Source: Candidatus Woesearchaeota archaeon (GTDB taxonomy: Archaea; Nanobdellota; Nanobdellia; Pacearchaeales; GW2011-AR1). Taken from it: DNA of 39,985 bases. The stretch spans positions 1 through 39,985 of the forward strand of contig CAZOGQ010000001.1 in the NCBI GenBank assembly GCA_964579545.1, in the 5' to 3' direction. Below, piece by piece: positions 6,811 through 34,347 of the stretch. Position 1 is the stretch's first letter, and the number at the start of each line of letters is the position of its first letter. The notes below the pieces were generated by a model that saw only the letters and a list, made by a program, of their open reading frames with translations, was not told the DNA's origin and ran no database searches. The translations under genes were made by a program, and so were the position numbers.

Positions 6811-8124
6811 ATGTTAAAAAAACAAACAAAAAAACAGGCAGAAGCACAATCAGGTGATTTTGTGCAGATTAAGAAAGGCAAAGACATAACAAAAGGCACT
6901 TTACTTGAAAGTTATGAGCAAGGTATATTGTTGTTAAAGTTAAAGTCTGGTTACAATATTGGTATAAAAAAATCTGATGTTACAAGCACAAAGGTTATTG
7001 AGAGGTATAAAGAATCAGGACAAGAGGAAATACAAATAAAAAAAGATAATGAGAAAAAAAATATTGGCATGATAATAACAGGAGGAACAATTTCTGCTCG
7101 TCTTGATTATAAAACAGGAGGAGTAAGTTGGTTGACAAATCCAGAACAGCTTTTTAAATTTTATCCGAAAATATTTGATATTGTTAATATACAGAAAATT
7201 GAAGTGCCATTTATGATGGCAAGTGAAAATATGTCAGGAAAAGAATGGCAGATTATTGCTAAAACAGCTTTTGATCTATTGCAAGACAATAATGTCCATG
7301 GTTTAATTATTACACATGGAACTGACTTTTTGCATTATACTTCTGCAGCATTATCTTTTTTTCTTCGTAACCTGAAGAAACCAGTTGTCTTAACATATTC
7401 ACAGAGATCAACAGACAGGGGAAGTTCAGATGCTGCTTTAAATTTAGAGTGCGCTGCAAGAGCAGCTGTATCTGATATTGCAGAAGTCACACTTGTAGGA
7501 CATGCTTCTTTGAATGATGAATTTTGTTATGCATTGCCTGGTACAAAGACAAGGAAGATGCATAGTTCAAGAAGAGATACTTTTCGGCCAATTAATGCTT
7601 TACCTTTTGCCAAGATATGGCCTGATAGGATTGAGAAAATCTCTCAATATAGAACAAGAGAAATTGCAAAAAAATCTGGGAAATTTCAACTTGACAATAA
7701 GTTTGAAAATAAAGTTGCTTTAATTAAATTTTATCCTGGGCAAAGCCCAGATATTATTGATTTTTATGCTAAGAATTATAAGGGCATTGTTGTGGAGGCA
7801 AGTGGACTTGGGCATTTACCTGTTGGAAGCATCAAACACAATTGGCTTGCTAAATTAAAAAAATTAATAAATAATGGCTTAATTGTATGTGCAGCCCCAC
7901 AAACACTTTATGGAAGACTTGATCCATATGTATACTCGCCAGCTCGCCAGCTCCTTGATGCTGGTGTGATTTATCTTGAAGATATGCTACCTGAAACAGC
8001 TTTTGTAAAATTAGGGTGGGTACTTGCTAAAACAAAAGACAAAGAAAAAGCAAAAGAACTTATGCTAGAAAATTTTTCACATGAAATAAATAAAAGGTTG
8101 ACAACACAGGAATTTTTATACTAA
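6811..8124 (+). CDS. gatD: Glu-tRNA(Gln) amidotransferase subunit D
   Basis: 437 aa with an N-terminal GatD-specific domain followed by an asparaginase-type domain. Motifs seen: 'IITGGTISARLDYKTGGV', 'ITHGTDFLHYTSAALSF'. Confidence 0.9.
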   Translation: MLKKQTKKQAEAQSGDFVQIKKGKDITKGTLLESYEQGILLLKLKSGYNIGIKKSDVTSTKVIERYKESGQEEIQIKKDNEKKNIGMIITGGTISARLDYKTGGVSWLTNPEQLFKFYPKIFDIVNIQKIEVPFMMASENMSGKEWQIIAKTAFDLLQDNNVHGLIITHGTDFLHYTSAALSFFLRNLKKPVVLTYSQRSTDRGSSDAALNLECAARAAVSDIAEVTLVGHASLNDEFCYALPGTKTRKMHSSRRDTFRPINALPFAKIWPDRIEKISQYRTREIAKKSGKFQLDNKFENKVALIKFYPGQSPDIIDFYAKNYKGIVVEASGLGHLPVGSIKHNWLAKLKKLINNGLIVCAAPQTLYGRLDPYVYSPARQLLDAGVIYLEDMLPETAFVKLGWVLAKTKDKEKAKELMLENFSHEINKRLTTQEFLY

Positions 8125-8659: not shown

Positions 8660-11314
8660 ATGAATAAGTTGAGAAATTACAGAAAAATAAGAAGTTGTCT
8701 TTTAGTTTTATTTTTTTTAATTACTTTAATAATTAATTCTAATATGAGTTTTAGTGATTTAAATGATTCCCTTATATTAAACTTTATAGAACCAACCGCT
8801 AAAAACAATGCTACAACAGCAAATACAAGTACGATAATAAATATCAATGCTAATAAAAATGTGGATTCTTGCATATTGGTTTGGAACGGCTCTCGTAAAT
8901 TGTTTGATGAGGTGTCTGTTGAGCCACAGGAAAAATATGTTAAGAATCCTATACTAACAAGGTCTTCTAGTGGTTGGGATGAGTGGGGTATACGGGATCA
9001 AACATTTTTGGTTTATCCTAATGGTAGTTTAGTTTATGATGCAGACGGGAACCTATCTTTATATTATCGGGGCGAAAATAATAACAGAGCTTCAAGTATA
9101 GGGATAGCTATTTGTAGTAGGTCAAATGATAAGAAGACTATGGCTTGTTCAAAATATATGGGGAATCCTGTCTTTACTCCAGAAGAGATGGGGTGGAATT
9201 CAATTTCAAGGGTTGGCACAGGCTCTGTTATCAAAAATGGCTCTACTTATTGGCTGTATTTCTGGGGCTGGAATGGTACCGGAAATTATGAGTTGTATTT
9301 AGCAAATAGTTCAGATGGAATAAATTGGAGGGCATATAGCTTATCACCTATCTTAAGCTCAAGCCAATTTTATCCTGAAAGGGGTATTTCTCTTCAAAAT
9401 GTAAGATATGTTAAAAAAGGATTTTGGGTAATGTATATAGAACATAGTGCTTATGATATTGTTTATGCGACCTCTACAGATGGAATTTCTTGGACAGTGC
9501 AAAATAATGGAAAACCAATTATAGTTACTACAGACTGGGGTTATAAAACTTGTAACCCTAAATTTATAGAATTAGAGGATAATAAGTATATTATGGGAAT
9601 CAACAGTTATCCTGGCAATGGCGTGTATTGGCGTGGTGGTTTTTTAATTTCTACTAATTTAATTGATTGGGTAGATTATGGAAAAATTGTTTTAGATGCT
9701 GGAGCAGACAGTTATTGGGATGATGACAGAATTGAACATTTAGAGATAATTAAAGATGATATTAATGGAGAGATAATTGGCATGACCTACTTTGGCTGTC
9801 CTTCAGGACATGCTACATGGCATTGTGCAATTGGTTACACAACAATCAACCAATCTAAAACTAGTTCAGGGAATTATACAATGAAAATTCATAATGCAGG
9901 TGGGAGTACAACAGCGCTTCATAATATAACCCATTTAAAAGATGGGGAACAAATTTATTATGTTTGGTGTAATGATTCAGCAGGAAATTCAAATATAACA
10001 GAAACAAGAATTTTAAATGTTGACGCAAAACAGAAAATAGGTAATGACTCTCTTATCTTAAAAATGCATTTTGATAATAATCTAAAATATGGTGAAAATA
10101 ATAGTTTTGTTTATGATTTTTCTGGTAATGGGAACAATGGAATTGTAATGGGAGCGTTTTGGACCCCATCTGGTAAGTTCAATGGCTCATTTAACTTTGA
10201 TGGAAATGAAGATTATATTGCTTTAGGAAATAGCAACATTCTAAATCTAACTTATTTTACAATATCATTTTGGGCAAAACCAAATCAAATATCAGACCTT
10301 AGATTTATTCTCTCAAAAAGATATGGTAGTGATTATACTGTCCCTTATCAATTATATTTTAAGTATGGGAGATTAAGACTTGTAATGGGAAATAAAACTA
10401 CAAGTATGTGTGCATATAGCCCCATATCAACAGCAAATGAATGGCAATATTTTACAGCAGTAGTTAATGGTACAAGTATGAAAGTTTATAGAAACGCAGT
10501 TGAGGGAATTTCAACAGAATTTATTGGACAAAGGCAGTATAATAATAAAAATTTATATATTGGGAAATACGGAAGTTCAAATAAACTTTGGTATAATGGC
10601 TTAATAGACGAGCTAAAAATATGGAATAAAGCTCTAACAGAAGAAGAAATAAAAGAAGAATATGAAAAAGCAGATGAACCAGAAAATATTGGCATGGTTC
10701 TATATTTTTCTTTTAATGAGACAAATAGCAATACTGCACATGATTCTATAGGAAAAAATCATGGCACTATTCATGGTGCAGAATGGACACAAGGTAAAAT
10801 GGGAAATGCTCTGAACTTTGATGGAAATGAAGATTATATTGCTTTAGGAAATAGCAACATTCTAAATCTAACTTATTTTACAATATCATTTTGGGCAAAA
10901 CCAAATCAAATATCAGACCTTAGATTTATTCTCTCAAAAAGATATGGTAGTGATTATACTGTCCCTTATCAATTATATTTTAAGTATGGGAGATTAAGAC
11001 TTGTAATGGGAAATAAAACTACAAGTATGTGTGCATATAGCCCCATATCAACAGCAAATGAATGGCAATATTTTACAGCAGTAGTTAATGGTACAAGTAT
11101 GAAAGTTTATAGAAACGCAGTTGAGGGAATTTCAACAGAATTTATTGGACAAAGGCAGTATAATAATAAAAATTTATATATTGGGAAATACGGAAGTTCA
11201 AATAAACTTTGGTATAATGGCTTAATAGACGAGCTAAAAATATGGAATAAAGCTCTAACAGAAGAAGAAATAAAAGAAGAATATGAAAAAGCAGATGAAC
11301 CAGAATCTTTGTAA
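8660..11314 (+). CDS. Large secreted surface protein: beta-propeller glycosidase-like N-terminal region plus two LamG/concanavalin-A-like lectin domains
   Basis: 884 aa with a signal-like N-terminus. Repeated 'W..Y/F..G..S.DG..W' blades resemble the GH43/GH32/GH130 superfamily. Two Laminin_G_3-type domains end in 'LIDELKIWNKALTEEEI'. N-x-S/T sequons are very frequent. Confidence 0.75.
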   Translation: MNKLRNYRKIRSCLLVLFFLITLIINSNMSFSDLNDSLILNFIEPTAKNNATTANTSTIININANKNVDSCILVWNGSRKLFDEVSVEPQEKYVKNPILTRSSSGWDEWGIRDQTFLVYPNGSLVYDADGNLSLYYRGENNNRASSIGIAICSRSNDKKTMACSKYMGNPVFTPEEMGWNSISRVGTGSVIKNGSTYWLYFWGWNGTGNYELYLANSSDGINWRAYSLSPILSSSQFYPERGISLQNVRYVKKGFWVMYIEHSAYDIVYATSTDGISWTVQNNGKPIIVTTDWGYKTCNPKFIELEDNKYIMGINSYPGNGVYWRGGFLISTNLIDWVDYGKIVLDAGADSYWDDDRIEHLEIIKDDINGEIIGMTYFGCPSGHATWHCAIGYTTINQSKTSSGNYTMKIHNAGGSTTALHNITHLKDGEQIYYVWCNDSAGNSNITETRILNVDAKQKIGNDSLILKMHFDNNLKYGENNSFVYDFSGNGNNGIVMGAFWTPSGKFNGSFNFDGNEDYIALGNSNILNLTYFTISFWAKPNQISDLRFILSKRYGSDYTVPYQLYFKYGRLRLVMGNKTTSMCAYSPISTANEWQYFTAVVNGTSMKVYRNAVEGISTEFIGQRQYNNKNLYIGKYGSSNKLWYNGLIDELKIWNKALTEEEIKEEYEKADEPENIGMVLYFSFNETNSNTAHDSIGKNHGTIHGAEWTQGKMGNALNFDGNEDYIALGNSNILNLTYFTISFWAKPNQISDLRFILSKRYGSDYTVPYQLYFKYGRLRLVMGNKTTSMCAYSPISTANEWQYFTAVVNGTSMKVYRNAVEGISTEFIGQRQYNNKNLYIGKYGSSNKLWYNGLIDELKIWNKALTEEEIKEEYEKADEPESL
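10193..10685 (+). repeat. Direct repeat copy 1 (493 bp, 100% identical to 10814..11306)
   Basis: A base-by-base read shows identity with an offset of exactly 621 nt (207 codons), in frame. Confidence 0.95.
10814..11306 (+). repeat. Direct repeat copy 2 (493 bp, 100% identical to 10193..10685)
   Basis: Same evidence as copy 1. Identity starts inside the LamG domain (at 'NFDGNEDY') and ends at 'ADEPE'. Confidence 0.95.
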
Positions 11315-12209: not shown

Positions 12210-13661
12210 ATGGATTATAAAAAAATAGGTTTAATGTCTGGAATTGAAATACATCAACAACTTGATACTGGTAAGTTGTTTTGTTCTTGTCCAAGTGTTT
12301 TGAGAACAGATAAGCCAGACTTAAATGTTGGAAGAAGACTACATGTTGTGGCAGGAGAAGCTGGTCAGACAGATGAGGCGGCTGAATATGAAAAAACAAG
12401 AGACAGGCAATTTATTTATGAGTTTTATAATGATACAAACTGCTTAATTGAATTAGATGAAGCACCCCCTAAACTTATTAATCAAGATGCATTGAAAATA
12501 GCTCTTCAGATTTCTCTTCTTTTGAATTGTGAAATAGTTCCTGTTAGTCAGATTATGAGGAAGACAGTTATAGATGGAAGTAATACATCTGGTTTCCAAC
12601 GCACAGTTCAAATAGCACGAAATGGCTATGTTGAAACAAAACAAGGCAAAATTGGTATTGAGGGTGTGTTTCTTGAAGAAGATGCCGCAAGAATAATTTC
12701 TCGAGATAAAGAGAATAATAAAATTGTATATAGACTTGACAGACTTGGTATCCCTCTTGTAGAAATAGCAACTGCTCCGGATATTAAGACTCCTAAACAG
12801 GCTAGAGAAGTTGCTTTACAAATTGGCGAAATTCTTCGGGCATGTAAAGTAAAAAGAGGCATAGGCACAATTCGACAAGATGTAAATATATCCATTGCAA
12901 ATGGAAAAAAACAAAGAAAGAGAATTGAAGTTAAAGGTGTTCAAGAGCCGCGGTTAATACAAAAGGTAATTGAAAATGAAGCTAAAAGGCAGCTTGAACT
13001 TATAAAGAAAAAGAAAAATATAAACGAGGTACGCAAGGCAAATCCAGATGGCTCTACATCATTTCTTAGACCAATGCCTGGTGCATCTCGAATGTATCCT
13101 GAAACAGACCTTCCACTTTTAAAAATTTCAAGGCAGTTAATTGATGAAGTTAAAAAATCTCTGCCGAGACTTAAGTCAGAGCTCCGGCATGAGTTAAGAC
13201 AGGAAGGTTTAAATGAAGAATTAATTTCTTTATTGCTTAAAGAAAATAAGCTGCAGGAATATAAAGAGCTTCTTCATATAATAGAAGAGCCTAGCCTCAT
13301 TGTAAAAATGCTTACTCTCTGGTTGAAGGAAATTGCAAGCCATGAAAAAAAATCACAAACAGCAGCCCAAAAAAAATTAAATATAGATGTTCTTGAAGCA
13401 ATCTTACAGAGTTTAAATAAAAACCAAATACAAGAAACAGATATCAAACAAATTATGGCAGATATTGTTAATGGAAAAAATGTACAAGAGGCATTAAAAA
13501 TAGAAAAAGTAGATATAGGCAAGATAGAAGAAGAAATTCTTCACTTAATTAAAGGAAAACCTGGCTTAAACATAAATGCATATATGGGTCTCATTATGAA
13601 AAAATTTAAGGGTTTCTCAGGAAAACAAATTATTGAGATTCTGAAGAAGTATGTTAAGTAG
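12210..13661 (+). CDS. gatE: Glu-tRNA(Gln) amidotransferase subunit E, short form lacking the AspRS-like (GAD) insertion domain
   Basis: GatE-type motifs are present: 'GIEIHQQLDTGKLFCSCPS', 'RKTVIDGSNTSGFQRT', 'GIPLVEIATAPD', 'GTIRQDVNISI' and 'FLRPMPGASRMYPETDLP'. It has a YqeY/GatB-like tail. It is 483 aa versus about 620 aa for characterised GatE. Confidence 0.8.
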   Translation: MDYKKIGLMSGIEIHQQLDTGKLFCSCPSVLRTDKPDLNVGRRLHVVAGEAGQTDEAAEYEKTRDRQFIYEFYNDTNCLIELDEAPPKLINQDALKIALQISLLLNCEIVPVSQIMRKTVIDGSNTSGFQRTVQIARNGYVETKQGKIGIEGVFLEEDAARIISRDKENNKIVYRLDRLGIPLVEIATAPDIKTPKQAREVALQIGEILRACKVKRGIGTIRQDVNISIANGKKQRKRIEVKGVQEPRLIQKVIENEAKRQLELIKKKKNINEVRKANPDGSTSFLRPMPGASRMYPETDLPLLKISRQLIDEVKKSLPRLKSELRHELRQEGLNEELISLLLKENKLQEYKELLHIIEEPSLIVKMLTLWLKEIASHEKKSQTAAQKKLNIDVLEAILQSLNKNQIQETDIKQIMADIVNGKNVQEALKIEKVDIGKIEEEILHLIKGKPGLNINAYMGLIMKKFKGFSGKQIIEILKKYVK

Positions 13662-13682: not shown

Positions 13683-14675
13683 CTAATATAAAACAGTATT
13701 TATATTATGAACTTTGTAAACCAAAGCAGACTCTATTTTTTGAATATTTTTTGGAAATTTGTTTTTTAGTTCTCTTAAAAAATCATGTAACTCGAAATGA
13801 GAGGGGAAAACACACTCAAATTCCAGATCCCATCTACCCATCTCTTTTATTATTTTTATTGTAGAAGTAAAAAAGGCTATATAGCTAATTATCTCTTTTT
13901 CTTTTTCTTCATTTATGTTTGTTAGATTCAAAAAAACATAAAAATTGTTTAAACCAAGTAAAGAATATTCTAGTCTTATCTTGTATCCATAGATTATCTT
14001 GTCTTTCTCCATCCTCTTTATTCTTGCTCTTATTGTTTGCGGAGAAAGTTTTAATTTTTCCATTAACTCAAGCATACTAACTCGTGAATTTTGTTTTATA
14101 GAATTTATTATTTTGATGTCTGTTTTATCTATTTTTATTACTGGTTTTTCTTCAGTTGTGAAATCAATTTTTTGGTCTAGTCTGTTATAAAGAAAATTAT
14201 ATGGAAAGTGATAAGACTTTTCACCAATACATAATTCTTTATCTAAGATGTAGTTATTGAATTTGTAAATTATTTTGCTGTATATAGAATTCATCTCTTC
14301 TAAATTTCTTGCTAAAAAGACTATGCAGAAATCAAAGTTTCCATCAAGGGTAGCAACCCAGTGTATATTTTTTATTTTTTCTAAATCATCTAAAAGTTTT
14401 TTCTTTAATTGTTCATTAAAATGGTGAAATTTGAGGAAGAGTTTACAATGTAAATAGCTAAGTCTTTTCCGGTCAACTATTGTGCAAAATAAATTAATCA
14501 AGCCCGTATCTTGCATTCTCTTGACACGATAAGCAACAACATTTTTTGGTAATTTCACAGTTTTGCCAATTTGAGAAAATGATTGCCTAGAATTTTCAAA
14601 TAAAGCTAAGATTATTTTTTTGTCTTTCTCATCAAGTTTAATTTTTTTAATTTGTTTAACTAATTTCTTCTTCAT
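13683..14675 (-). CDS. Tandem (duplicated) Lrp/AsnC-family transcriptional regulator
   Basis: 330 aa with two HTH-plus-RAM modules. The first is 'LDEKDKKIILALFENSRQSFSQIGKTVKLPKNVVAYRVKRMQDTGLI'. The second is 'IDKTDIKIINSIKQNSRVSMLELMEKLKLSPQTIRARIKRMEKDKII'. A TTTATAAA box at 14697..14704 lies 29 nt from the ATG. Confidence 0.8.
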   Translation of the reverse strand: MKKKLVKQIKKIKLDEKDKKIILALFENSRQSFSQIGKTVKLPKNVVAYRVKRMQDTGLINLFCTIVDRKRLSYLHCKLFLKFHHFNEQLKKKLLDDLEKIKNIHWVATLDGNFDFCIVFLARNLEEMNSIYSKIIYKFNNYILDKELCIGEKSYHFPYNFLYNRLDQKIDFTTEEKPVIKIDKTDIKIINSIKQNSRVSMLELMEKLKLSPQTIRARIKRMEKDKIIYGYKIRLEYSLLGLNNFYVFLNLTNINEEKEKEIISYIAFFTSTIKIIKEMGRWDLEFECVFPSHFELHDFLRELKNKFPKNIQKIESALVYKVHNINTVLY

Positions 14676-14782: not shown

Positions 14783-15061
14783 ATGTTAGAAAAAATAGCG
14801 GTTGTTGAAATTCCACCCTGTGATAGAGATTTTACTACTACCTGCGGAGTCGTTATAGAATTTGATGAAAATTCAAAAAGATTGTTTGTTAACAGTAAAG
14901 AAAGAAAGTGGAAATATTCTAGACCACCAGAAGTTGGAGATAAGATATACCTAGGATGCTGCCATTCTTCTGGTGAAACATGTGATCACTGTCAAGGGAG
15001 GGAGTTATATGGTGAAATCAAAGAAATAAAGACTCTTGAAAATGCTAAGACCAAAATTTGA
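14783..15061 (+). CDS. Small Cys-rich (putative metal-binding) protein, first gene of an uncharacterised operon
   Basis: 92 aa with Cys at positions 13, 21, 59, 60, 67 and 70 ('GCCHSSGETCDHCQG'). Confidence 0.5.
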   Translation: MLEKIAVVEIPPCDRDFTTTCGVVIEFDENSKRLFVNSKERKWKYSRPPEVGDKIYLGCCHSSGETCDHCQGRELYGEIKEIKTLENAKTKI

Positions 15062-16064
15062 AAAAAACATAAGATATGAATCAGACTTAAGAGGAAAAGA
15101 GCCAGAATTTTTCATACAAATTGGTTTTGATAGCATTCATGATGTTCTTTTATCAATTGCTCATAGGCAATTGAGCAATGAAGGTTCTGGTTTGGTATGG
15201 AATAGTGAAAACAAAAGTTGGGCGAGAGTCATAAATGGCAAAACACTTTCTAATGCTTATGAAAAAAATAAAAAAGATACAAGAATCTATCATAATAAAA
15301 TTGAAGAGCATATAGAAGCTCTTGGTTTAGACAAGCTAAAAGAAAAAGATGAGAATTTAGAATTCATTATAATAAGCAATGGAAATCTTGGAAACAATCT
15401 TTGGCATGTTGCTTGGCAGTACGACAAAGAAAGAAGACTTTATCATTTAAAAGATGAGCCCTTCACAGAAAGGGTGTATTCATGTCTTGTTACTTCAAGA
15501 GATAAAAGCAAAAGACTAGGAATAAAAAGAATAAAATTTAATGAAGCAGAAGAAGTATTTGACGAAGCTGGCAGAACTATCTCAAGGGGGGTTAAATGGT
15601 GTGCTTATGGACAGCAAATTGTTAGAACAGACAATGAGAGAAATATCACAGAAGTTGTGCCAATTGAAGAAATTGTAGAGCAATTTTATGATGTTAGGCA
15701 TGTTTTTGATTTAAAAGACTTTGACAAGAGAAAAGAAAAAGATGGAATGGTGATTAGCAAATTATATGAAGATTATCCTACAAAATTCAGAGAAAATATG
15801 CTGATTAAGTTAAGAGAATTTCCAAGAGCAAAATATTATCATTCAACTCTTGGGACAAACGAAGAAGGCATTGTAATTTATCATTATAAGGATAAGATAG
15901 AAGAAATTGGAAAAAGACTTGTTGATAAAGGAGTAAAAGATGCCATAATCTTAGACCAAGGAGGGAGTGTAGGAATTTATTCCTCTTGGCTGAATGGCTT
16001 TTTAACAAGAAGCTCGTATTTCCGTCCTGCGCGAATTTCCACAATTGCTTTTGTTTTGAAATGA
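15042..16064 (+). CDS. Hypothetical protein; C-terminus faintly resembles phosphodiester-glycosidase (DUF2233/NAGPA-like) domains
   Basis: The tracked start at 15036 is a TTG, and the first ATG is at 15042. It overlaps the upstream gene by 20 nt. The C-terminal 'GTNEEGIVIYHY..IEEIGKRLVDKGVKDAIILDQGGSVGIY..RPARISTIAFVLK' recalls the 'LDGGGS' family pattern. No signal peptide. Confidence 0.45.
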   Translation: MLRPKFEKNIRYESDLRGKEPEFFIQIGFDSIHDVLLSIAHRQLSNEGSGLVWNSENKSWARVINGKTLSNAYEKNKKDTRIYHNKIEEHIEALGLDKLKEKDENLEFIIISNGNLGNNLWHVAWQYDKERRLYHLKDEPFTERVYSCLVTSRDKSKRLGIKRIKFNEAEEVFDEAGRTISRGVKWCAYGQQIVRTDNERNITEVVPIEEIVEQFYDVRHVFDLKDFDKRKEKDGMVISKLYEDYPTKFRENMLIKLREFPRAKYYHSTLGTNEEGIVIYHYKDKIEEIGKRLVDKGVKDAIILDQGGSVGIYSSWLNGFLTRSSYFRPARISTIAFVLK

Positions 16065-16366
16065 TGAAAAAATATTATGCAAGAGTAAATCTCATACAAG
16101 CAGGAGTTAGTTATTTGTCAGAGCATCACCCATATGCAATGGGAGACAATTTTTCATTAGAAGCAACATCTCCAGAAGAAGCTGTAAAAAAAGCTTATGA
16201 ACAATCAAGTGGGGAAGCATTTTCAGAATTTGATCCTTATATCAAGACAACTGAAGGCCTTTATTGTTTAATAAACATAGAGATAACCGAAGATTGCGAA
16301 AGTAAAGAGCCAAAATTTTGGAAAGCAGACATAAAAAATGGAAAAATAATCATTAAAAAAAGATAG
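16061..16366 (+). CDS. Hypothetical small protein
   Basis: The probable start 'MMKKYYARV' at 16061 forms an ATGA overlap with the stop of the preceding gene. The tracked start at 15986 would overlap it by 79 nt. Confidence 0.45.
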   Translation: MMKKYYARVNLIQAGVSYLSEHHPYAMGDNFSLEATSPEEAVKKAYEQSSGEAFSEFDPYIKTTEGLYCLINIEITEDCESKEPKFWKADIKNGKIIIKKR

Positions 16367-16377
16367 TTAAGTGAAAA

Positions 16378-16794
16378 ATGATATACAAAGTTATGTTAAA
16401 TTATAATTGGGGAAGAGAATTAGACGAAAGTTTAGTAGCAGATGATTTCGTTATTAATACAACAGAGCATTTTATTATAGCAGATTCTTTAGACAATGCA
16501 AAACTAAAAGCTGAAAAACTTAGAGAGGAAGAGAGAAGATTAGTTCAAATAAGTTTAAACCTTCCTTATATTGGGATTGAAAAAATTATGTCACAAAGAG
16601 AATTAATTCCATATATTGCAAAAATAAAACTTTCAGATGAGCAAGAAATATCAAGAGTTGTTGGAGTAAAACCCAATGAAGATTACAAGAAAACTATTGA
16701 GAGCTATTTAAAGAGGTGCTCTTCCAGTTGGTTATGGCAAAAAAGAGGTAGAGGAATTAGTATAGAAGAAATAATAAAAACAACAACTGAATAA
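16378..16794 (+). CDS. Hypothetical protein
   Basis: 138-aa ORF starting 11 nt after the preceding gene. It is the last gene of the packed operon, immediately upstream of the aspS promoter box. Confidence 0.45.
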   Translation: MIYKVMLNYNWGRELDESLVADDFVINTTEHFIIADSLDNAKLKAEKLREEERRLVQISLNLPYIGIEKIMSQRELIPYIAKIKLSDEQEISRVVGVKPNEDYKKTIESYLKRCSSSWLWQKRGRGISIEEIIKTTTE

Positions 16795-16824: not shown

Positions 16825-18132
16825 ATGGAAAGAACTTACATTAAGGATATAAAATCAAAAATTGGAGAAGACATAGAAATTAAAGGATTTGTTCATGAAA
16901 TAAGGGATCAGAGTAAAATCAAGTTTATTATAATCAGAGATGTAACTGGGGTTATTCAATGTATTGTTAAACCAGAACAAAAAGAAGTATTTAACGAGAT
17001 TGTGAAAATTCCAAGAGAAAGTGTTTTAAAAATAACTGGAAAAGTAAAATCAAATAAACAAGCTCCTGGAGGAATTGAAATTTTAATTAGGGATTATGAA
17101 GTTCTTTCAAGAGCAGACTCGCCTCTACCAATTCCTGTTATTGAAAAAGGGCAGGAAGTTTCTTTACCAAAAAAATTAGATTATAGGTGGATTGAATTAA
17201 GAAAATCTAAAAATTTGTTAATTTTTAAAATATGGACATTTATGGAAAAAGCAATGAGAGAATATTGGGGTAAAAATAGTTATATTCAAATTTATAGTCC
17301 TAAATTTATGCCATCTCCAAGTGAAAGTGGAGCAGAGTTATTTAGTGTAAATTATTTTGGCAAAAAAGCATATTTAGCTCAGAGCCCCCAGTTTTATAAG
17401 CAAATGGCAATGGCCTCTGGATTTGAGAAAGTTTTTGAAATAGGGCCTGTTTTTAGAGCAAATCCTTCACATACAGTCAGACATGATACAGAGTTTACAA
17501 TGATAGATATGGAAATCTCATATGTTGACTCTCATGAGGATGTAATGAAAGTTGAGGAAGAATGGATTAATTATTTTATTAAAAGAATAAAAGAAGAATA
17601 TGGGGAAAAAATTAAAGAGGTTTTTGATGCTGATGTTAATATTCCTAAACTTCCTTTTCCTAGGTTAACAATGAAAGAAGCTCAAAAATTGCTTAGAAAA
17701 AAAGGGTACAAAGGGCCAAAAGATGATTTAGATGCAGAAGGAGAAAAATTGCTTTGTGAAATTATTAAAAAGAAATTTAATCATGAATTTGTTTTTGTTA
17801 CTGAGTATCCTTGGTCTGCAAGACCTTTCTATCATATGAAGAAAGAAGGAACAAATAACATTACCAAAAGTTTTGATTTAGTTTGTAAAGGAACAGAAGT
17901 TACAACAGGAGCCCAAAGAGAGCATAGATATAGGATTTTAAAAGAACAAGCTAAGGAAAAGAAAATTAATTTAAAACTTATTAAAGATTACTTGAATTTT
18001 TTTAAATATGGGTGCCCTCCACATGGTGGTTTTGCAATTAGCCCTACTAGATTCTTAATGTTATTATTAAATATAAAAAACGTTAGAGAAGTGACTTTTT
18101 TGCCGAGAGATACAGAGAGACTTACTCCGTGA
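16825..18132 (+). CDS. aspS: Aspartyl-tRNA synthetase, archaeal/eukaryal type (predicted non-discriminating)
   Basis: 435 aa. Motifs seen: 'AYLAQSPQFYKQ', 'GPVFRANPSHTVRHDTEF', 'GAQREHRY', 'GCPPHGGFAISPTR' and the C-terminal 'FLPRDTERLTP'. 'GFVHEIRD' and 'KQAPGGIEI' place His and Pro at the positions aligned to T. kodakarensis W26 and K85. Confidence 0.9.
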   Translation: MERTYIKDIKSKIGEDIEIKGFVHEIRDQSKIKFIIIRDVTGVIQCIVKPEQKEVFNEIVKIPRESVLKITGKVKSNKQAPGGIEILIRDYEVLSRADSPLPIPVIEKGQEVSLPKKLDYRWIELRKSKNLLIFKIWTFMEKAMREYWGKNSYIQIYSPKFMPSPSESGAELFSVNYFGKKAYLAQSPQFYKQMAMASGFEKVFEIGPVFRANPSHTVRHDTEFTMIDMEISYVDSHEDVMKVEEEWINYFIKRIKEEYGEKIKEVFDADVNIPKLPFPRLTMKEAQKLLRKKGYKGPKDDLDAEGEKLLCEIIKKKFNHEFVFVTEYPWSARPFYHMKKEGTNNITKSFDLVCKGTEVTTGAQREHRYRILKEQAKEKKINLKLIKDYLNFFKYGCPPHGGFAISPTRFLMLLLNIKNVREVTFLPRDTERLTP

Positions 18133-18170
18133 GTTAAAAATATTTAAGAATATTACTTTATGAGAAGAAA

Positions 18171-19568
18171 ATGGAAAACGTACACAAAACAGATTTTCGC
18201 ACACATACATGCGGCGAACTACGAAAAAAAGATATGAACAAGAAAGTCACGCTCTGTGGTTGGGCAAATACAGTAAGAGAACATGGCAAGTTAATTTTTA
18301 TTGACTTGCGTGATAGATATGGAATAACTCAGATTGTTTGTAGAGATATTGCTGAGGCGAAAAAAGTTGCTCTTGAGACAGTTATGCAAGTTAAAGGTCA
18401 GGTCAAGGAACGAAAAAAAGGAACAGAAAATAAAAATCTTACAACTGGCGAAATTGAAATTCTCGCAAATGAAATCAAAATACTTACAAAAGCAGCTAAA
18501 CTTCCTATCCAGGTAAATAAAAATGAAGCTGTTGATGAAAATACAAGACTTAAGTATAGATTTTTAGATTTAAGAAGACCAGAAATGCAAAAAGCTCTTG
18601 ACTTTAGAAATAAAGTTATTATTGCTGCTCGTGAATATTTTGAGCAGCAAGAGTTTATTGAGGTTGAAACACCTATCTTAGTTAAACCAACACCAGAAGG
18701 TGCAAGAGATTACATTGTGCCGAGCAGAGTAAACCCTGGCAAGTTTTATGCTCTTCCTCAAAGTCCACAGCTTTACAAACAGATTTTAATGATCGCTGGT
18801 TTTGACAGATATTTTCAAATAGCAAGATGTCTAAGAGATGAAGACTTAAGAGCAGACAGGCAGCCAGAACACACGCAGATTGATCTTGAAGTTTCGTTTG
18901 TAACAGGAGAAGATATTATGAAAATTGTAGAAGGAATGTATAAACATATTTTTAAAAAAGTCCTAGGCATTGAATTAAAAATACCTTTTCCACGTTTGAC
19001 ATATAAAGAAGCAATGTCAAAGTATAGAACAGACAAGCCAGATATTCGCAAGAACAAAAAAGACAAAAAAGAATACGCATTTTGTTGGATTTATGATTTT
19101 CCTCTTTTCGCTTATAATAAACAAGAAAAAAAATGGGAACCAGAACATCATATTTTCAGTTCACCAAAACAACAAGACATTAAACTTCTTGATACAGACC
19201 CAGGAAAAGTAAAAGGAGCATTATTTGATATTGTTTTGAATGGCAGTGAACTTGGCTCTGGCTCTATACGTATTAATGATCCTGAACTTCAAGAAAAAGT
19301 TATGAAAATTATTGGCTTGTCAAAAAAAGAAGCATATAAAAAATTCGGCTTTCTCTTAGATGCTTATAAATACGCTGGACCGCCACATGGGGGCATGGGA
19401 CTTGGCCTTGATAGACTTATTGCAATAATGCTTGGTTATTCTGACATAAGAGAAGTAATTGCATTTCCGCGAAATAAGGCTGCTCAAAATCCAATGGATG
19501 ATTCTCCTTCGGAGATTTCAAAACAGCAGCTTGACGAGGCACATATTTCTCTGAAAGGGAAGAAATAG
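18171..19568 (+). CDS. aspS: Aspartyl-tRNA synthetase, bacterial type, lacking the GAD insertion domain
   Basis: 465 aa. Motifs seen: 'FRTHTCGELR..VTLCGWANTVREHGKLIFIDLRDRYG', 'ALPQSPQLYKQ', 'YFQIARCLRDEDLRADRQPEHTQIDLE' and 'GPPHGGMGLGLDRL'. 'DKPDIRKNKKDKKEYAFCWIYDFPLF' replaces the usual insertion of about 130 aa. Confidence 0.9.
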   Translation: MENVHKTDFRTHTCGELRKKDMNKKVTLCGWANTVREHGKLIFIDLRDRYGITQIVCRDIAEAKKVALETVMQVKGQVKERKKGTENKNLTTGEIEILANEIKILTKAAKLPIQVNKNEAVDENTRLKYRFLDLRRPEMQKALDFRNKVIIAAREYFEQQEFIEVETPILVKPTPEGARDYIVPSRVNPGKFYALPQSPQLYKQILMIAGFDRYFQIARCLRDEDLRADRQPEHTQIDLEVSFVTGEDIMKIVEGMYKHIFKKVLGIELKIPFPRLTYKEAMSKYRTDKPDIRKNKKDKKEYAFCWIYDFPLFAYNKQEKKWEPEHHIFSSPKQQDIKLLDTDPGKVKGALFDIVLNGSELGSGSIRINDPELQEKVMKIIGLSKKEAYKKFGFLLDAYKYAGPPHGGMGLGLDRLIAIMLGYSDIREVIAFPRNKAAQNPMDDSPSEISKQQLDEAHISLKGKK

Positions 19569-21342: not shown

Positions 21343-21606
21343 ATGATAACAACAATACAACTTGACAACAAAATAAAAGAAAAACTAGATCATCTAAAAG
21401 TCCACCATAGAGAAACATACAATGAAGTAATTGCTAGGTTGATAAATGGAAGTTCACCTAAAGAAATAGATAAAGATAGTTTAATTGAAACAATAGAAAT
21501 ACTTTCTGATCCAGAAACACTTAAAGATATAGCAGTAGCACTAGAAGAATATGAAAGAAAGGGCGGAAAAACATTCGAGCAAGTAGAAAAAGAGTTAGAG
21601 ATTTAA
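21343..21606 (+). CDS. Putative antitoxin of the RelE toxin at 21608..21859
   Basis: 87 aa. It has an RHH-like N-terminus 'TIQLDNKIKEKLDHLKVHHRETYNEVIARLI' and an acidic C-terminal tail. There is a 1-nt gap to the toxin gene. A 10-bp palindrome AACTATAGTT lies at 21305..21314, just after the TTTATAAA box at 21299. Confidence 0.55.
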   Translation: MITTIQLDNKIKEKLDHLKVHHRETYNEVIARLINGSSPKEIDKDSLIETIEILSDPETLKDIAVALEEYERKGGKTFEQVEKELEI

Positions 21607-21607
21607 A

Positions 21608-21859
21608 ATGTATTCTATTGAAATTCAAAGTCCTGCTGAAAAATTTCTTAAAAAATTAGATAAAAAAGAACAAAGAAGAATAATAAATAAATTAAAAGAG
21701 CTAAAGAAAAATCCAGAGATTGGAAAACCTCTTGTGGGCAAATTAGCTGGATTATGGAGTTTAAGAATAGGAATTTACAGAACAATTTATCAAATAAGAC
21801 ATTCAGAATTACTAATTCTTATTTTAAAAATAGGCCATAGAAAAAAGATTTATGGATAA
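21608..21859 (+). CDS. RelE/ParE-family type II toxin
   Basis: 83 aa with the motif 'KELKKNPEIGKPLVGKLAGLWSLRIGIYRTIYQIRHSELLILILKIGHRKKIY'. Confidence 0.75.
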   Translation: MYSIEIQSPAEKFLKKLDKKEQRRIINKLKELKKNPEIGKPLVGKLAGLWSLRIGIYRTIYQIRHSELLILILKIGHRKKIYG

Positions 21860-22189: not shown

Positions 22190-22603
22190 ATGTGGGAAGG
22201 AAAACTAATAATTGCATCAGGACCTGTAATAATAGAAGATGGCAAGCTATTAGTTAATAAAGATAATAAAGATGATTTTTATAAACTTCCTGGAGGAACA
22301 ATTGAAAAAGGAATTGAAGATTTAGAAGAAGCATGTCATCACGAGGTTAAAGAAGAAAATAATGCAGAAATAGAAATTATTAAACCACTAAGTCCAATGA
22401 TTCTTTGGAAAAATCCGCAAACAGAAGAAAAAATGGCTGTTGTTCTTATACATTATCTTGCCAAATTAAAAAATAAAGAAGATATAAAGGCGATTCCACC
22501 AATTCAAGAAGTAAAATGGCTTGATATAGAAGAGATTAAGCAAGAAAAACATTTTGTTGCTCCAAATATTAAATTTCTTATTGAAAAAGGAGATATAAAA
22601 TGA
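22190..22603 (+). CDS. Nudix-family hydrolase (variant Nudix box)
   Basis: 137 aa. 'GGTIEKGIEDLEEACHHEVKEENNAEI' matches GGx5Ex7REx2EExGU with R replaced by H and G replaced by N. It has an ATGA overlap with gatA. Confidence 0.7.
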   Translation: MWEGKLIIASGPVIIEDGKLLVNKDNKDDFYKLPGGTIEKGIEDLEEACHHEVKEENNAEIEIIKPLSPMILWKNPQTEEKMAVVLIHYLAKLKNKEDIKAIPPIQEVKWLDIEEIKQEKHFVAPNIKFLIEKGDIK

Positions 22604-32739: not shown

Positions 32740-34347
32740 TTATTGAGTTGGATTATTAACTCTTCCTATAAATAGAATATTACCAGTTTTTGTTTCTTGG
32801 ATTATAAATATAAATGGATGGTCTGCTCTAAACTCCACATAATGAGGCATTGCAGCTCCAGCCATCATGCTAATAACAGTTGCTGCGGCTGCTTCTGTTC
32901 CTTCTTCGTAAACATCGATGTATGCTTTATGTAGTACTTTATCTATGTAAAGCAAATCAGTTCCATCCATTCCAGAAAAATCTGCACCAGGCCAAGTAAA
33001 TGGCAAATCCATTCCCATGCTTTTTAAGTAGTCTGATAAAGAATAAGATGTTTCAAAAGTGTATTTAGGCATGTAAATATAAACTGTTTCAGGCTTGAGT
33101 TTGTTTCTCCATTCTTGAAGTTTTCCCTCAGTTAGTATTGATTCTATTTGGGTCATATCACTTTGTTGAGGTTCAATTCCTTCCATTTCAAATCTTCTTT
33201 GAAGCATTGGATCTGTTATTTCTGTTCTTGGAAGGAGAACTAACATGGATATCTTATCTCCTTGATAATGCATTTCAAGTATCTGCACTCCATCAGATTC
33301 GACATAATTAAAATCCAGTTCGTCATCTGTAAGCCTCATCATTGGAACTTTTATTTTTGAACCAGACTCAAGAGTGAAGTCTTCTGGTTTTGTATCATCC
33401 CTATCAAATTGGTGTTCCCATTTTCCTTTGAAATATATAGCATTTGTTAGAACAGCACGAGACATCTCGTTAAACATACTTGGAGAAACAATATTTGTAA
33501 TCTTATTGTTCGTATTTTTTGAAACCCAACTATTAATATCAGAACTCGCACCACTAGGATTATTAACAAAATCAAGATTTTTAATTTCACCTAGATAATA
33601 TCTACTTATGGTATCTTTGTAATTTTTCAAAAAAGGATAATCTTTCTGTAACCATATTGCATTGGCTGTGCTTAGTTTATATTTACTACTTGCTTTGTTT
33701 AAGGTATTTAATATCTTAGCGTATGAAGATCTTCTTGAATTCTCATTTACTGTAAAATGGAAAATACTTTGAATTTCATTGGCTGTTTCTCCACGAGCAC
33801 CTTCATAAGCCATTGCCATAGCAGTTGATATGCTCCAAGGGGAGAAAAAAATGTTCTCATTAGATTCTTTATTTACCTCAGAATAGAGGTCAATAGCAAA
33901 TTGATTGTTCGCGTTAGCTACTTCTGTAACTCCTTGGAGTGTTGCTCCACTATCATCAGCGGTTGGAATGAAGATATCTCCCCATCCAAAATTAAAGAAA
34001 CCATAAATTACGAATCCAATAATTATAATAAAACCTAAAGCGATGAATTTTTTTGCATCCCATCTTATCAGAGTTAATTTGTTTTTAATAAATATAATAA
34101 TCTTCATTAGAATGCAAGAAACAATATATAACCAAAGAATTTCTATTATTAAACCAACAATCATAAATAATCCCATGCCAAACATAAAGGAAAAAACCAA
34201 AGGAAACCCTAATACCATTACTATTGGGATGAGTGTATTCTGAAGACCTACAGACATTAACTTAAAAGCCATGAAACCTGTAAGAAGCAGTAGCAAAATT
34301 GTTAAAATTATTTTCTTCCAATTTGGTTTAAAAAATTCTTTAAGCAT
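32740..34347 (-). CDS. Serpin with an N-terminal four-helix membrane anchor
   Basis: 535 aa. Residues 1 to about 125 form four hydrophobic helices. The full serpin core follows, from 'NQFAIDLYSEV' and 'NIFFSPWSISTAMAMAYEGARGETANEI' to the hinge 'EEGTEAAAATVI' and 'FRADHPFIFIIQETKTGNILFIGRV'. Confidence 0.9.
   Translation of the reverse strand: MLKEFFKPNWKKIILTILLLLLTGFMAFKLMSVGLQNTLIPIVMVLGFPLVFSFMFGMGLFMIVGLIIEILWLYIVSCILMKIIIFIKNKLTLIRWDAKKFIALGFIIIIGFVIYGFFNFGWGDIFIPTADDSGATLQGVTEVANANNQFAIDLYSEVNKESNENIFFSPWSISTAMAMAYEGARGETANEIQSIFHFTVNENSRRSSYAKILNTLNKASSKYKLSTANAIWLQKDYPFLKNYKDTISRYYLGEIKNLDFVNNPSGASSDINSWVSKNTNNKITNIVSPSMFNEMSRAVLTNAIYFKGKWEHQFDRDDTKPEDFTLESGSKIKVPMMRLTDDELDFNYVESDGVQILEMHYQGDKISMLVLLPRTEITDPMLQRRFEMEGIEPQQSDMTQIESILTEGKLQEWRNKLKPETVYIYMPKYTFETSYSLSDYLKSMGMDLPFTWPGADFSGMDGTDLLYIDKVLHKAYIDVYEEGTEAAAATVISMMAGAAMPHYVEFRADHPFIFIIQETKTGNILFIGRVNNPTQ

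Follow-up and report, generated by a model that had tools for sequence, protein, structure and literature searches.

A bacterial-type aspartyl-tRNA synthetase without its GAD domain, encoded near a GAD-less GatE in a Woesearchaeota gene cluster

The 39,985-nucleotide stretch of a Candidatus Woesearchaeota archaeon analyzed here (contig CAZOGQ010000001.1, positions 1 to 39,985; henceforth "the window") carries a gene cluster for tRNA-dependent amide amino acid synthesis, in which the open reading frame (ORF) at 18171-19568 encodes a bacterial-type aspartyl-tRNA synthetase (AspRS) with exactly the GAD insertion replaced by a 9-residue linker. In our judgement this protein is probably a working class IIb AspRS from which GAD was excised lineage-wide in DPANN archaea, with the same architecture arisen separately in bacteria of the Candidate Phyla Radiation (CPR), and which feeds the amidotransferase GatCAB. 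The same explanation holds that the deletion of the homologous insertion from GatE, encoded upstream, was a separate and more widespread event, not mechanistically coupled to the loss in AspRS.

Analysis of the domain composition of the 465-residue AspRS with Pfam reveals the tRNA_anti-codon domain (PF01336, residues 26-105) and the tRNA-synt_2 domain (PF00152, residues 122-436, covering profile positions 1-308 of 308), and no match to the GAD domain (PF02938). The window likewise gave no match at E<0.5 to a GAD hidden Markov model (HMM) built for this analysis, which picked up the positive controls at 1e-39 to 1e-47. The protein exceeds the curated cutoffs of NF001750 (aspartate--tRNA ligase; 677.9 bits vs. 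443, with the match split into two stretches) and TIGR00459 (635.6 bits vs. 373.85). In the alignment with the structure 6wom, residues 5-295 correspond to chain residues 6-300 and residues 298-460 to chain residues 425-587, with approximately 124 residues skipped, and the alignment with AspRS1 of T. thermophilus (6hhv) breaks at the same place. The junction reads DKPDIR-KNKKDKKEY-AFCWIYDFPLF, where DKPDIR comprises residues 288-293 and AFCW residues 303-306. The earlier note on this DNA, made from the letters alone, had described a bacterial-type AspRS of 465 residues with a cleanly excised GAD domain and had read the junction in the same way; Pfam, NCBIfam and the alignments to 6wom and 6hhv bear it out on each of these points, the missing segment being the GAD domain.

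By sequence, fold, and phylogeny the protein groups with the bacterial-type AspRS. Its best scores are 484 bits to bacterial AspRS structures vs. 164 bits to archaeal ones. With the bacterial-type enzymes (E. coli, 1C0A; T. thermophilus AspRS1, 1EFW/6HHV; the non-discriminating (ND) AspRS of P. aeruginosa, 4WJ3/4WJ4) it shares the OB-fold and the class IIb core (430-484 bits, query-normalized TM-score (TMq) of 0.82-0.88, equivalog cutoff of NCBIfam passed), but it lacks their GAD domain of approximately 124 residues, and the conserved 9-residue linker joins the two halves. The archaeal-type ND-AspRS (T. thermophilus AspRS2, 1N9W/3KFU; S. tokodaii, 1WYD) resemble it in the compact two-domain shape without GAD, but they score only about 130-165 bits (TMq about 0.7), and the true archaeal-type enzyme of the window is the product of the neighboring gene at 16825-18132. 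The class II motifs 1-3 and the aspartate-binding motif QSPQ are retained, and Q197, S198, P199, Q200, R222, D223, E224, D225, H406, G407, G408, and R415 vary little or not at all among 38 homologs, which points to a catalytically active enzyme. The AlphaFold2 model (pLDDT 84.4, pTM 0.84) has pLDDT of 92-97 in the 10-residue blocks at the junction, and Foldseek aligned it to bacterial AspRS with TMq of 0.81-0.88 and a target-normalized TM-score (TMt) of 0.65-0.79, the lower TMt being expected for targets with an extra domain; for archaeal AspRS TMq is 0.70-0.71. A frameshift, misassembly, or truncated gene call could in principle mimic the deletion of a domain, but the reading frame is unbroken, the model is confident across the junction, and the same junction occurs in about 95 independent homologous clusters from many samples. 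We found no point in favor of such an artefact and regard its probability as negligible. An exact-sequence look-up of the window AspRS returned no record.

A search covering 5.8 billion proteins returned about 80 clusters of 453-478 residues with 61-73% identity to the window AspRS, none of them with PF02938. In total, about 90 GAD-less clusters in this identity range are named Woesearchaeota, Pacearchaeota, or Nanoarchaeota, and the nearest homologs of both AspRS and GatE of the window bear the same three Candidatus names. After these clusters follow the first GAD-containing relatives (573-605 residues, 61-65% identity), also from Woesearchaeota/Nanoarchaeota. All of the approximately 95 GAD-less sequences break at identical boundaries, and they share a linker of conserved sequence, DKPDLR-K[ND]K[x][DN][Px][KN]E[FY]-AFCW. 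A scan of genome contigs with the single AspRS protein yielded three loci, all GAD-containing. The search for further GAD-less bacterial-type AspRS and their taxonomy, suggested in the earlier note, found them in Woese- and Pacearchaeota, and showed that they are widespread also in CPR/Patescibacteria.

Some DPANN bacterial-type AspRS, GAD-less or GAD-containing, have an additional C-terminal YbaK/ProX-like tRNA_edit domain (PF04073) of about 150 residues, confirmed in P0013 (612 residues) and P0118 (740 residues) and inferred from length in P0242 (744 residues) and in the 798-codon frame at 9803-12196 of L002. These proteins would be AspRS fused to a putative aminoacyl-tRNA deacylase. We considered the YbaK-like domain of P0013 as a replacement of GAD and rejected it, as it is a C-terminal fusion. 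Some GAD-less AspRS (P0108, P0476, P0481) are labeled by NCBI "amino acid--tRNA ligase-related protein", and the current annotation rules seem unsettled by the missing GAD domain.

Outside archaea, a scan of metagenomes revealed 25 further GAD-less loci, with proteins of 40-54% identity, G+C content ranging from 0.25 to 0.60, and the linker DKPDLRKDKNDPNELAF. One of these proteins is deposited as a product of a bacterial metagenome-assembled genome, and the GAD-less aspS of locus L089 has bacterial neighbors (ScpA/B, Der, Pth, DprA, TopA, sigma-70). When the search was seeded with a metagenomic GAD-less AspRS, the best 120 clusters were all 450-495 residues long, lacked PF02938, and were named Candidatus Yanofskybacteria, Nomurabacteria, Parcubacteria, Paceibacterota, and Woesebacteria. 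The CPR proteins (e.g. from Candidatus Yanofskybacteria GW2011_GWC2_37_9 and Nomurabacteria) agree with the window AspRS in architecture, boundaries, and a nearly identical linker, but differ from it in overall sequence (40-54% identity), in their separate position in the trees described below, in two residues of the anticodon-binding domain (mostly Q/K instead of H/G), and in their bacterial genomes. A third GAD-less group, found at 97-1509 of L009 and 2855-4252 of L010, has a different and shorter linker (RKETGSEFAF and RQDKNGDLLNF), and its nearest relatives are GAD-containing. The context of L010 is ordinary bacterial (hisS-aspS, PhoH, RecO, PolX), which places this gene in a bacterium outside the CPR-like clade.

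We calculated neighbor-joining (NJ) trees for 310 sequences (436 columns with the junction removed, Kimura correction, 100 bootstraps). The GAD-less and GAD-containing sequences from DPANN form a clade in 100/100 bootstraps, and the CPR clade is nearly intact in 96/100; a single clade of all GAD-less sequences is found in 0/100 and was rejected. In these trees the GAD-less proteins of archaea fall among archaeal proteins with GAD and away from CPR, which makes it probable that CPR bacteria and the archaeal clade each excised GAD on their own, i.e. at least twice in all and at the same boundaries. Sliding-window comparison agrees with the trees: the DPANN GAD-less proteins are nearer to their GAD-containing DPANN relatives than to the CPR GAD-less proteins everywhere except for about 40 residues at the junction, and in the C-terminal third their identity to archaeal GAD-containing proteins is 0.65-0.80 vs. 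0.35-0.47 to CPR GAD-less ones. A mosaic or gene-conversion origin of the junction was rejected on the same grounds, the archaeal GAD-containing relatives being closest everywhere but in the linker.

Two points weigh against independent excision. The near-identical linkers of the CPR and DPANN forms are an awkward coincidence if the deletions were independent, and the trees are distance-based NJ trees and not likelihood trees. There might instead have been a single ancient GAD-less lineage, with one deletion (e.g. in CPR) and archaea acquiring the gene already without GAD, in which case the loss would be unrelated to the history of the window organism itself; the same boundaries and nearly the same linker (RKDKNDPNELAF in CPR, RKNKNDPKEFAF in DPANN) at an overall identity of only 40-54% speak for it. 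We consider it distinctly unlikely, given the bootstrap values, the lack of a mosaic signal outside the junction, and the Q/K residues that CPR proteins mostly have where DPANN proteins have H/G. Moreover, the tail that follows GAD in GAD-containing proteins (R-L-[NDKE]-L-[IV]-x-x-x-[ED]-[FY]-K-F-C-W) and the GAD-less junction (R-K-[ND]-K-x-D-P-x-E-F-A-F-C-W) have equal spacing, which suggests that the linker is mostly the native post-GAD tail with its hydrophobic residues replaced, and this in part explains the similarity of the linkers in CPR and DPANN.

The scenario of independent excision, which we prefer, would then comprise the following steps. GAD would have been excised at its domain boundaries and the short tail behind it remodeled into a conserved hydrophilic linker; the GAD-less form, now lineage-wide in Woese- and Pacearchaeota, would have evolved from GAD-containing bacterial-type homologs of the same archaeal group; and the same architecture would have arisen separately in CPR, with a probable third origin in other bacteria. 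GAD thus appears to be repeatedly dispensable for the core enzyme, which without it would take the compact shape of the archaeal-type AspRS. Archaeal and eukaryotic AspRS catalyze their reaction without GAD.

It has been proposed that the GAD domain of bacterial ND-AspRS hinders the binding of a scaffold tRNA or destabilizes the transamidosome, and that it may trap the product, while the archaeal-type ND-AspRS of Thermus builds a stable transamidosome with GatCAB (PMC3367201); according to a review, the archaeal-type complex, which lacks GAD, goes with slower release of Asn-tRNA (PMC9499178). From these roles a GAD-less bacterial-type enzyme would be expected to be closer in its behavior to the compact archaeal-type partner.

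As for specificity, the genes gatC and gatA lie downstream of aspS in the window and in five related loci (L004, L090, L091, L095, L096), and in L093 the end of aspS overlaps the start of gatC and the end of gatC that of gatA, with gatB following. The anticodon-binding domain of the window AspRS contains H38 and G84, and the same pair occurs in 5gro from H. pylori, whose deposited name is Asp/Asn ligase, and in 4o2d from M. smegmatis, deposited as aspartate--tRNA ligase; the discriminating AspRS of E. coli has L and K at these positions, and AspRS1 of T. thermophilus has L at the first. In DPANN, H is found at the first position in 75/89 GAD-less and 28/28 GAD-containing proteins, and G at the second in 85/89 and 25/28, respectively. 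The H/G pattern together with the linkage to gat genes suggests that the window AspRS is probably non-discriminating, i.e. that it charges tRNA(Asp) as well as tRNA(Asn) with aspartate and supplies Asp-tRNA(Asn) to GatCAB. The CPR proteins have Q at the first position in 27/43 cases and K at the second in 32/43, and a gene for an asparaginyl-tRNA synthetase-like protein adjoins aspS in some CPR loci (L019-L021); these enzymes may be discriminating.

The neighboring archaeal-type AspRS has His24 and a Pro where 1n9w and 1wyd have H/P (the T. kodakarensis enzyme has W/K). Two AspRS of the ND type may therefore coexist in the window organism, to judge from their residues. The slot between gatE and gatA contains only an archaeal-type aspS in L092 (12238-13524), only a GAD-less bacterial-type aspS in the five related loci named above, and both in tandem in the window, and the tandem pair at 16825-19568 may be an intermediate stage in which one AspRS type displaces the other in place.

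Several observations tell against a partnership of the bacterial-type enzyme with GatCAB. With the ND-type signature in its archaeal-type neighbor, the bacterial-type copy may be redundant, or labor may be divided otherwise; gatB is absent from the window, GatA falls slightly and GatC clearly below the curated cutoffs, and the 40-kb window contains no tRNA genes. The His and Gly positions are reported to act as specificity determinants in the mutagenesis work of Bernard et al. (2006); our look in the literature for the determinants W26/K85 (archaeal-type) and H31/G83 (bacterial-type) turned up nothing usable. One may suppose that the bacterial-type copy is discriminating (specific for tRNA(Asp)) or has another aspartate-activating role, and that its archaeal-type neighbor is the ND-AspRS serving GatCAB. 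Such a division has a precedent in Thermus/Deinococcus, whose discriminating AspRS is of the bacterial type and whose non-discriminating one is of the archaeal type, and the H/P residues of the archaeal-type copy match those of the ND enzymes 1n9w and 1wyd, while the NCBI label of some GAD-less members mentioned above would fit a diverged role. We nevertheless find it unlikely: the protein has kept its anticodon-binding domain along with every catalytic motif, and these are conserved; its H38/G84 pair matches ND bacterial enzymes; and five related loci have no AspRS gene other than the bacterial-type one within 10 kb of gat genes.

The second GAD loss concerns GatE, whose identity is well supported (NF003107, 487.1 bits vs. 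a cutoff of 456; TIGR00134, 454.1 vs. 319.55; PF02934, 209 bits). In comparison to GatE of known GatDE structures (M. thermautotrophicus, 2D6F; P. abyssi, 1ZQ1) the protein passes the equivalog cutoff, and the alignment to 2d6f_C covers the catalytic and helical regions (residues 1-273 to chain residues 1-268, and residues 272-428 to chain residues 397-550), but about 128 residues are missing: the AspRS-like insertion at residues 269-396 of 2d6f_C has no counterpart, and Pfam found no match to PF02938. The insertion is what distinguishes GatE from its paralog GatB, so that the window protein combines a GatB-like architecture with a GatE sequence. The best 120 GatE clusters (472-516 residues) all lack PF02938, i.e. 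there are at least 120 clusters with GAD-less GatE, and they share a moderately conserved linker of their own. The claim that GatE, 4.5 kb upstream of aspS, has lost its homologous insertion is thus upheld by the 2d6f_C alignment and by Pfam. The two scars, called "very similar" in the earlier note, are alike in composition only, both being Lys-rich, and not in motif, as the conserved linkers differ (RK[ND]KxDPxEF in AspRS vs. L[IV]K-xxK-SxAEVRKA in GatE). Lys accounts for 5/9 residues of the AspRS linker, and among 2234 nine-residue stretches in five window proteins 13 are as Lys-rich, at a background Lys fraction of 11%.

The losses in AspRS and GatE can be compared in eight syntenic loci that we classified for both genes, and which were picked via GAD-less queries, so that the correlation of the two losses cannot be measured from this sample. 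Both proteins lack GAD in 6/8 loci (the window, L004, L090, L091, L095, L096). A 382-kb JGI contig combines a GAD-less AspRS (457 residues) with a 611-residue GatE containing PF02938, and L093 combines a GAD-containing AspRS (573 residues) with a GAD-less GatE (468 residues; NF003107, 466 bits). In L092 a GAD-less GatE has only an archaeal-type AspRS nearby. GatDE is archaeal (PMC2811023), and CPR bacteria, in which GAD-less AspRS is widespread, are not known to have GatE. The mixed loci and CPR show that each loss occurs without the other. The frequent co-occurrence of the two fits the expectation from shared ancestry in one DPANN clade.

The earlier note had proposed that both GAD domains share a function that is no longer needed or is supplied by another factor, and that they were therefore lost together. 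Both losses are real and clean, but the link between them is not supported in the form proposed, and its co-occurrence check gave the six loci without GAD in both proteins along with one exception of either kind. In favor of a coupled loss one may cite these six loci, the location of both genes in one conserved neighborhood, and published models that give both domains roles in the geometry of the transamidosome (PMC2943598, PMC3367201). We judge it improbable nonetheless: the two mixed states, L092, and CPR speak against it, the published roles differ (the GatE insertion is proposed to dock the class I glutamyl-tRNA synthetase (GluRS) and to exclude AspRS, the GAD of AspRS to affect scaffold tRNA and product release), and the GAD HMM found no stand-alone GAD ORF either in the window or in any of eight related loci, so that no trans-acting substitute encoded locally came to light. 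In a weaker form of the idea, GAD domains may be generally dispensable in the ultra-small cells of CPR and DPANN.

The GatE insertion has been modeled as a pocket that binds ND-GluRS without tRNA and clashes with ND-AspRS (PMC2943598, PMC2330236). Its loss would predict tRNA-dependent binding of GluRS, as in GatB, and would remove the modeled clash with ND-AspRS. It is conceivable, if very improbable, that GAD-less GatDE docks an AspRS (GAD-less bacterial-type or archaeal-type) and joins in the formation of Asn-tRNA(Asn) or in a combined Asn/Gln transamidosome; were this true, the gene order gatD-gatE-aspS would reflect a partnership, and the recurrent removal of GAD would re-engineer the pairing of synthetase and amidotransferase.

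The gene order gatD-gatE-aspS-gatC-gatA of the window (Table 1) is kept in related archaea. The G+C content per 2-kb step ranges from 27 to 35% across the window. gatD precedes gatE by 4 kb, the end of gatE precedes the bacterial-type aspS by 4.5 kb, the two aspS genes are 38 nucleotides apart, and the gatC-like ORF and gatA follow 2.3-3 kb downstream of the bacterial-type aspS.

Table 1. Features of the window discussed in the text (positions of the whole stretch)
Feature	Position	Strand	Evidence and remarks
gatD (GatD, partner subunit of GatE)	6811..8124	+	Pfam GatD_N, Asparaginase, and Asparaginase_C; NF003217, 450 bits vs. cutoff 310
gatE (GatE, 483 residues, without GAD)	12210..13661	+	NF003107, TIGR00134, PF02934; alignment to 2d6f_C
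GatE junction IKKKKNINE, about residues 265-273	13002-13028	+	Alignment at the junction
Lrp/AsnC-type regulator with two winged-helix domains	13683..14675	-	Pfam
Archaeal-type aspS, 435 residues	16825..18132	+	NF003483 aspartate--tRNA(Asn) ligase, 513.9 bits vs. cutoff 353
Bacterial-type aspS without GAD, 465 residues	18171..19568	+	NF001750; OB-fold at residues 26-105, class II core at residues 122-436
AspRS linker KNKKDKKEY, residues 294-302, in place of the GAD domain of about 124 residues	19050..19076	+	Break in the alignment to PDB structures
Probable archaeal gatC, 87 residues	21919..22182	+	NF000681 GatC, 44.4 bits, below cutoff 64; no Pfam match; position as gatC in L004 and L093
NUDIX hydrolase, overlaps the start of gatA	22190..22603	+	Same pairing in L007 and L095
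gatA-like amidase, 454 residues	22600..23964	+	Pfam Amidase, 388.8 bits; TIGR00132 gatA, 476.8 bits, just below cutoff 481.1

A regulator of 320-335 residues with two AsnC-type helix-turn-helix domains recurs in the window (13683-14675, minus strand), in L007 (11791-12798), where its gene adjoins aspS, and in L092 (5161-6123), where it adjoins gatD, and may exert an amino-acid-responsive control of the aspS/gat cluster. Between the regulator and the archaeal-type aspS of the window, four consecutive ORFs (92, 342, 126, and 138 residues; 14783-16794, plus strand) have no Pfam match. In several genomes the interval between aspS and gatA contains small toxin-antitoxin-like pairs: two small ORFs in the window (21343-21859, plus strand), which are RelE/ParE-like by eye only, HicAB in the contig of P0078, PIN in L090, and ParE in L091 and L096. 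Insertions seem to have hit this interval repeatedly. Two further products of the window are a protein of 884 residues with two Laminin_G_3 (concanavalin-like) domains between gatD and gatE (8660-11314, plus strand), and a serpin of 535 residues (32740-34347, minus strand).

The literature searched yielded no account of a bacterial-type AspRS without GAD, and the papers retrieved describe no GatE without the insertion, although no search was aimed at the latter. The AspRS sequences have been public for a long time under the names aspartate--tRNA ligase or "amino acid--tRNA ligase-related protein". What we report is not a new system but a widespread natural deletion that apparently went unremarked. 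In one survey the presence of GAD served as a criterion for the "bacterial-type" AspRS (PMC4206432); the window AspRS lacks this domain, and classification on this basis would mislabel the GAD-less bacterial-type enzymes.

The function of GAD in AspRS is still unsettled, and CPR bacteria and a DPANN clade naturally do without it. The GAD-less clades are natural deletion variants with GAD-containing sisters at 61-65% identity, in which the contribution of GAD to product retention, transamidosome stability, and tRNA handling is testable. In the same way, nature offers in the GAD-less GatE a test of the published model in which the insertion docks GluRS and excludes AspRS, and at the locus as a whole a bacterial-type AspRS may be in the course of displacing an archaeal-type one in place.

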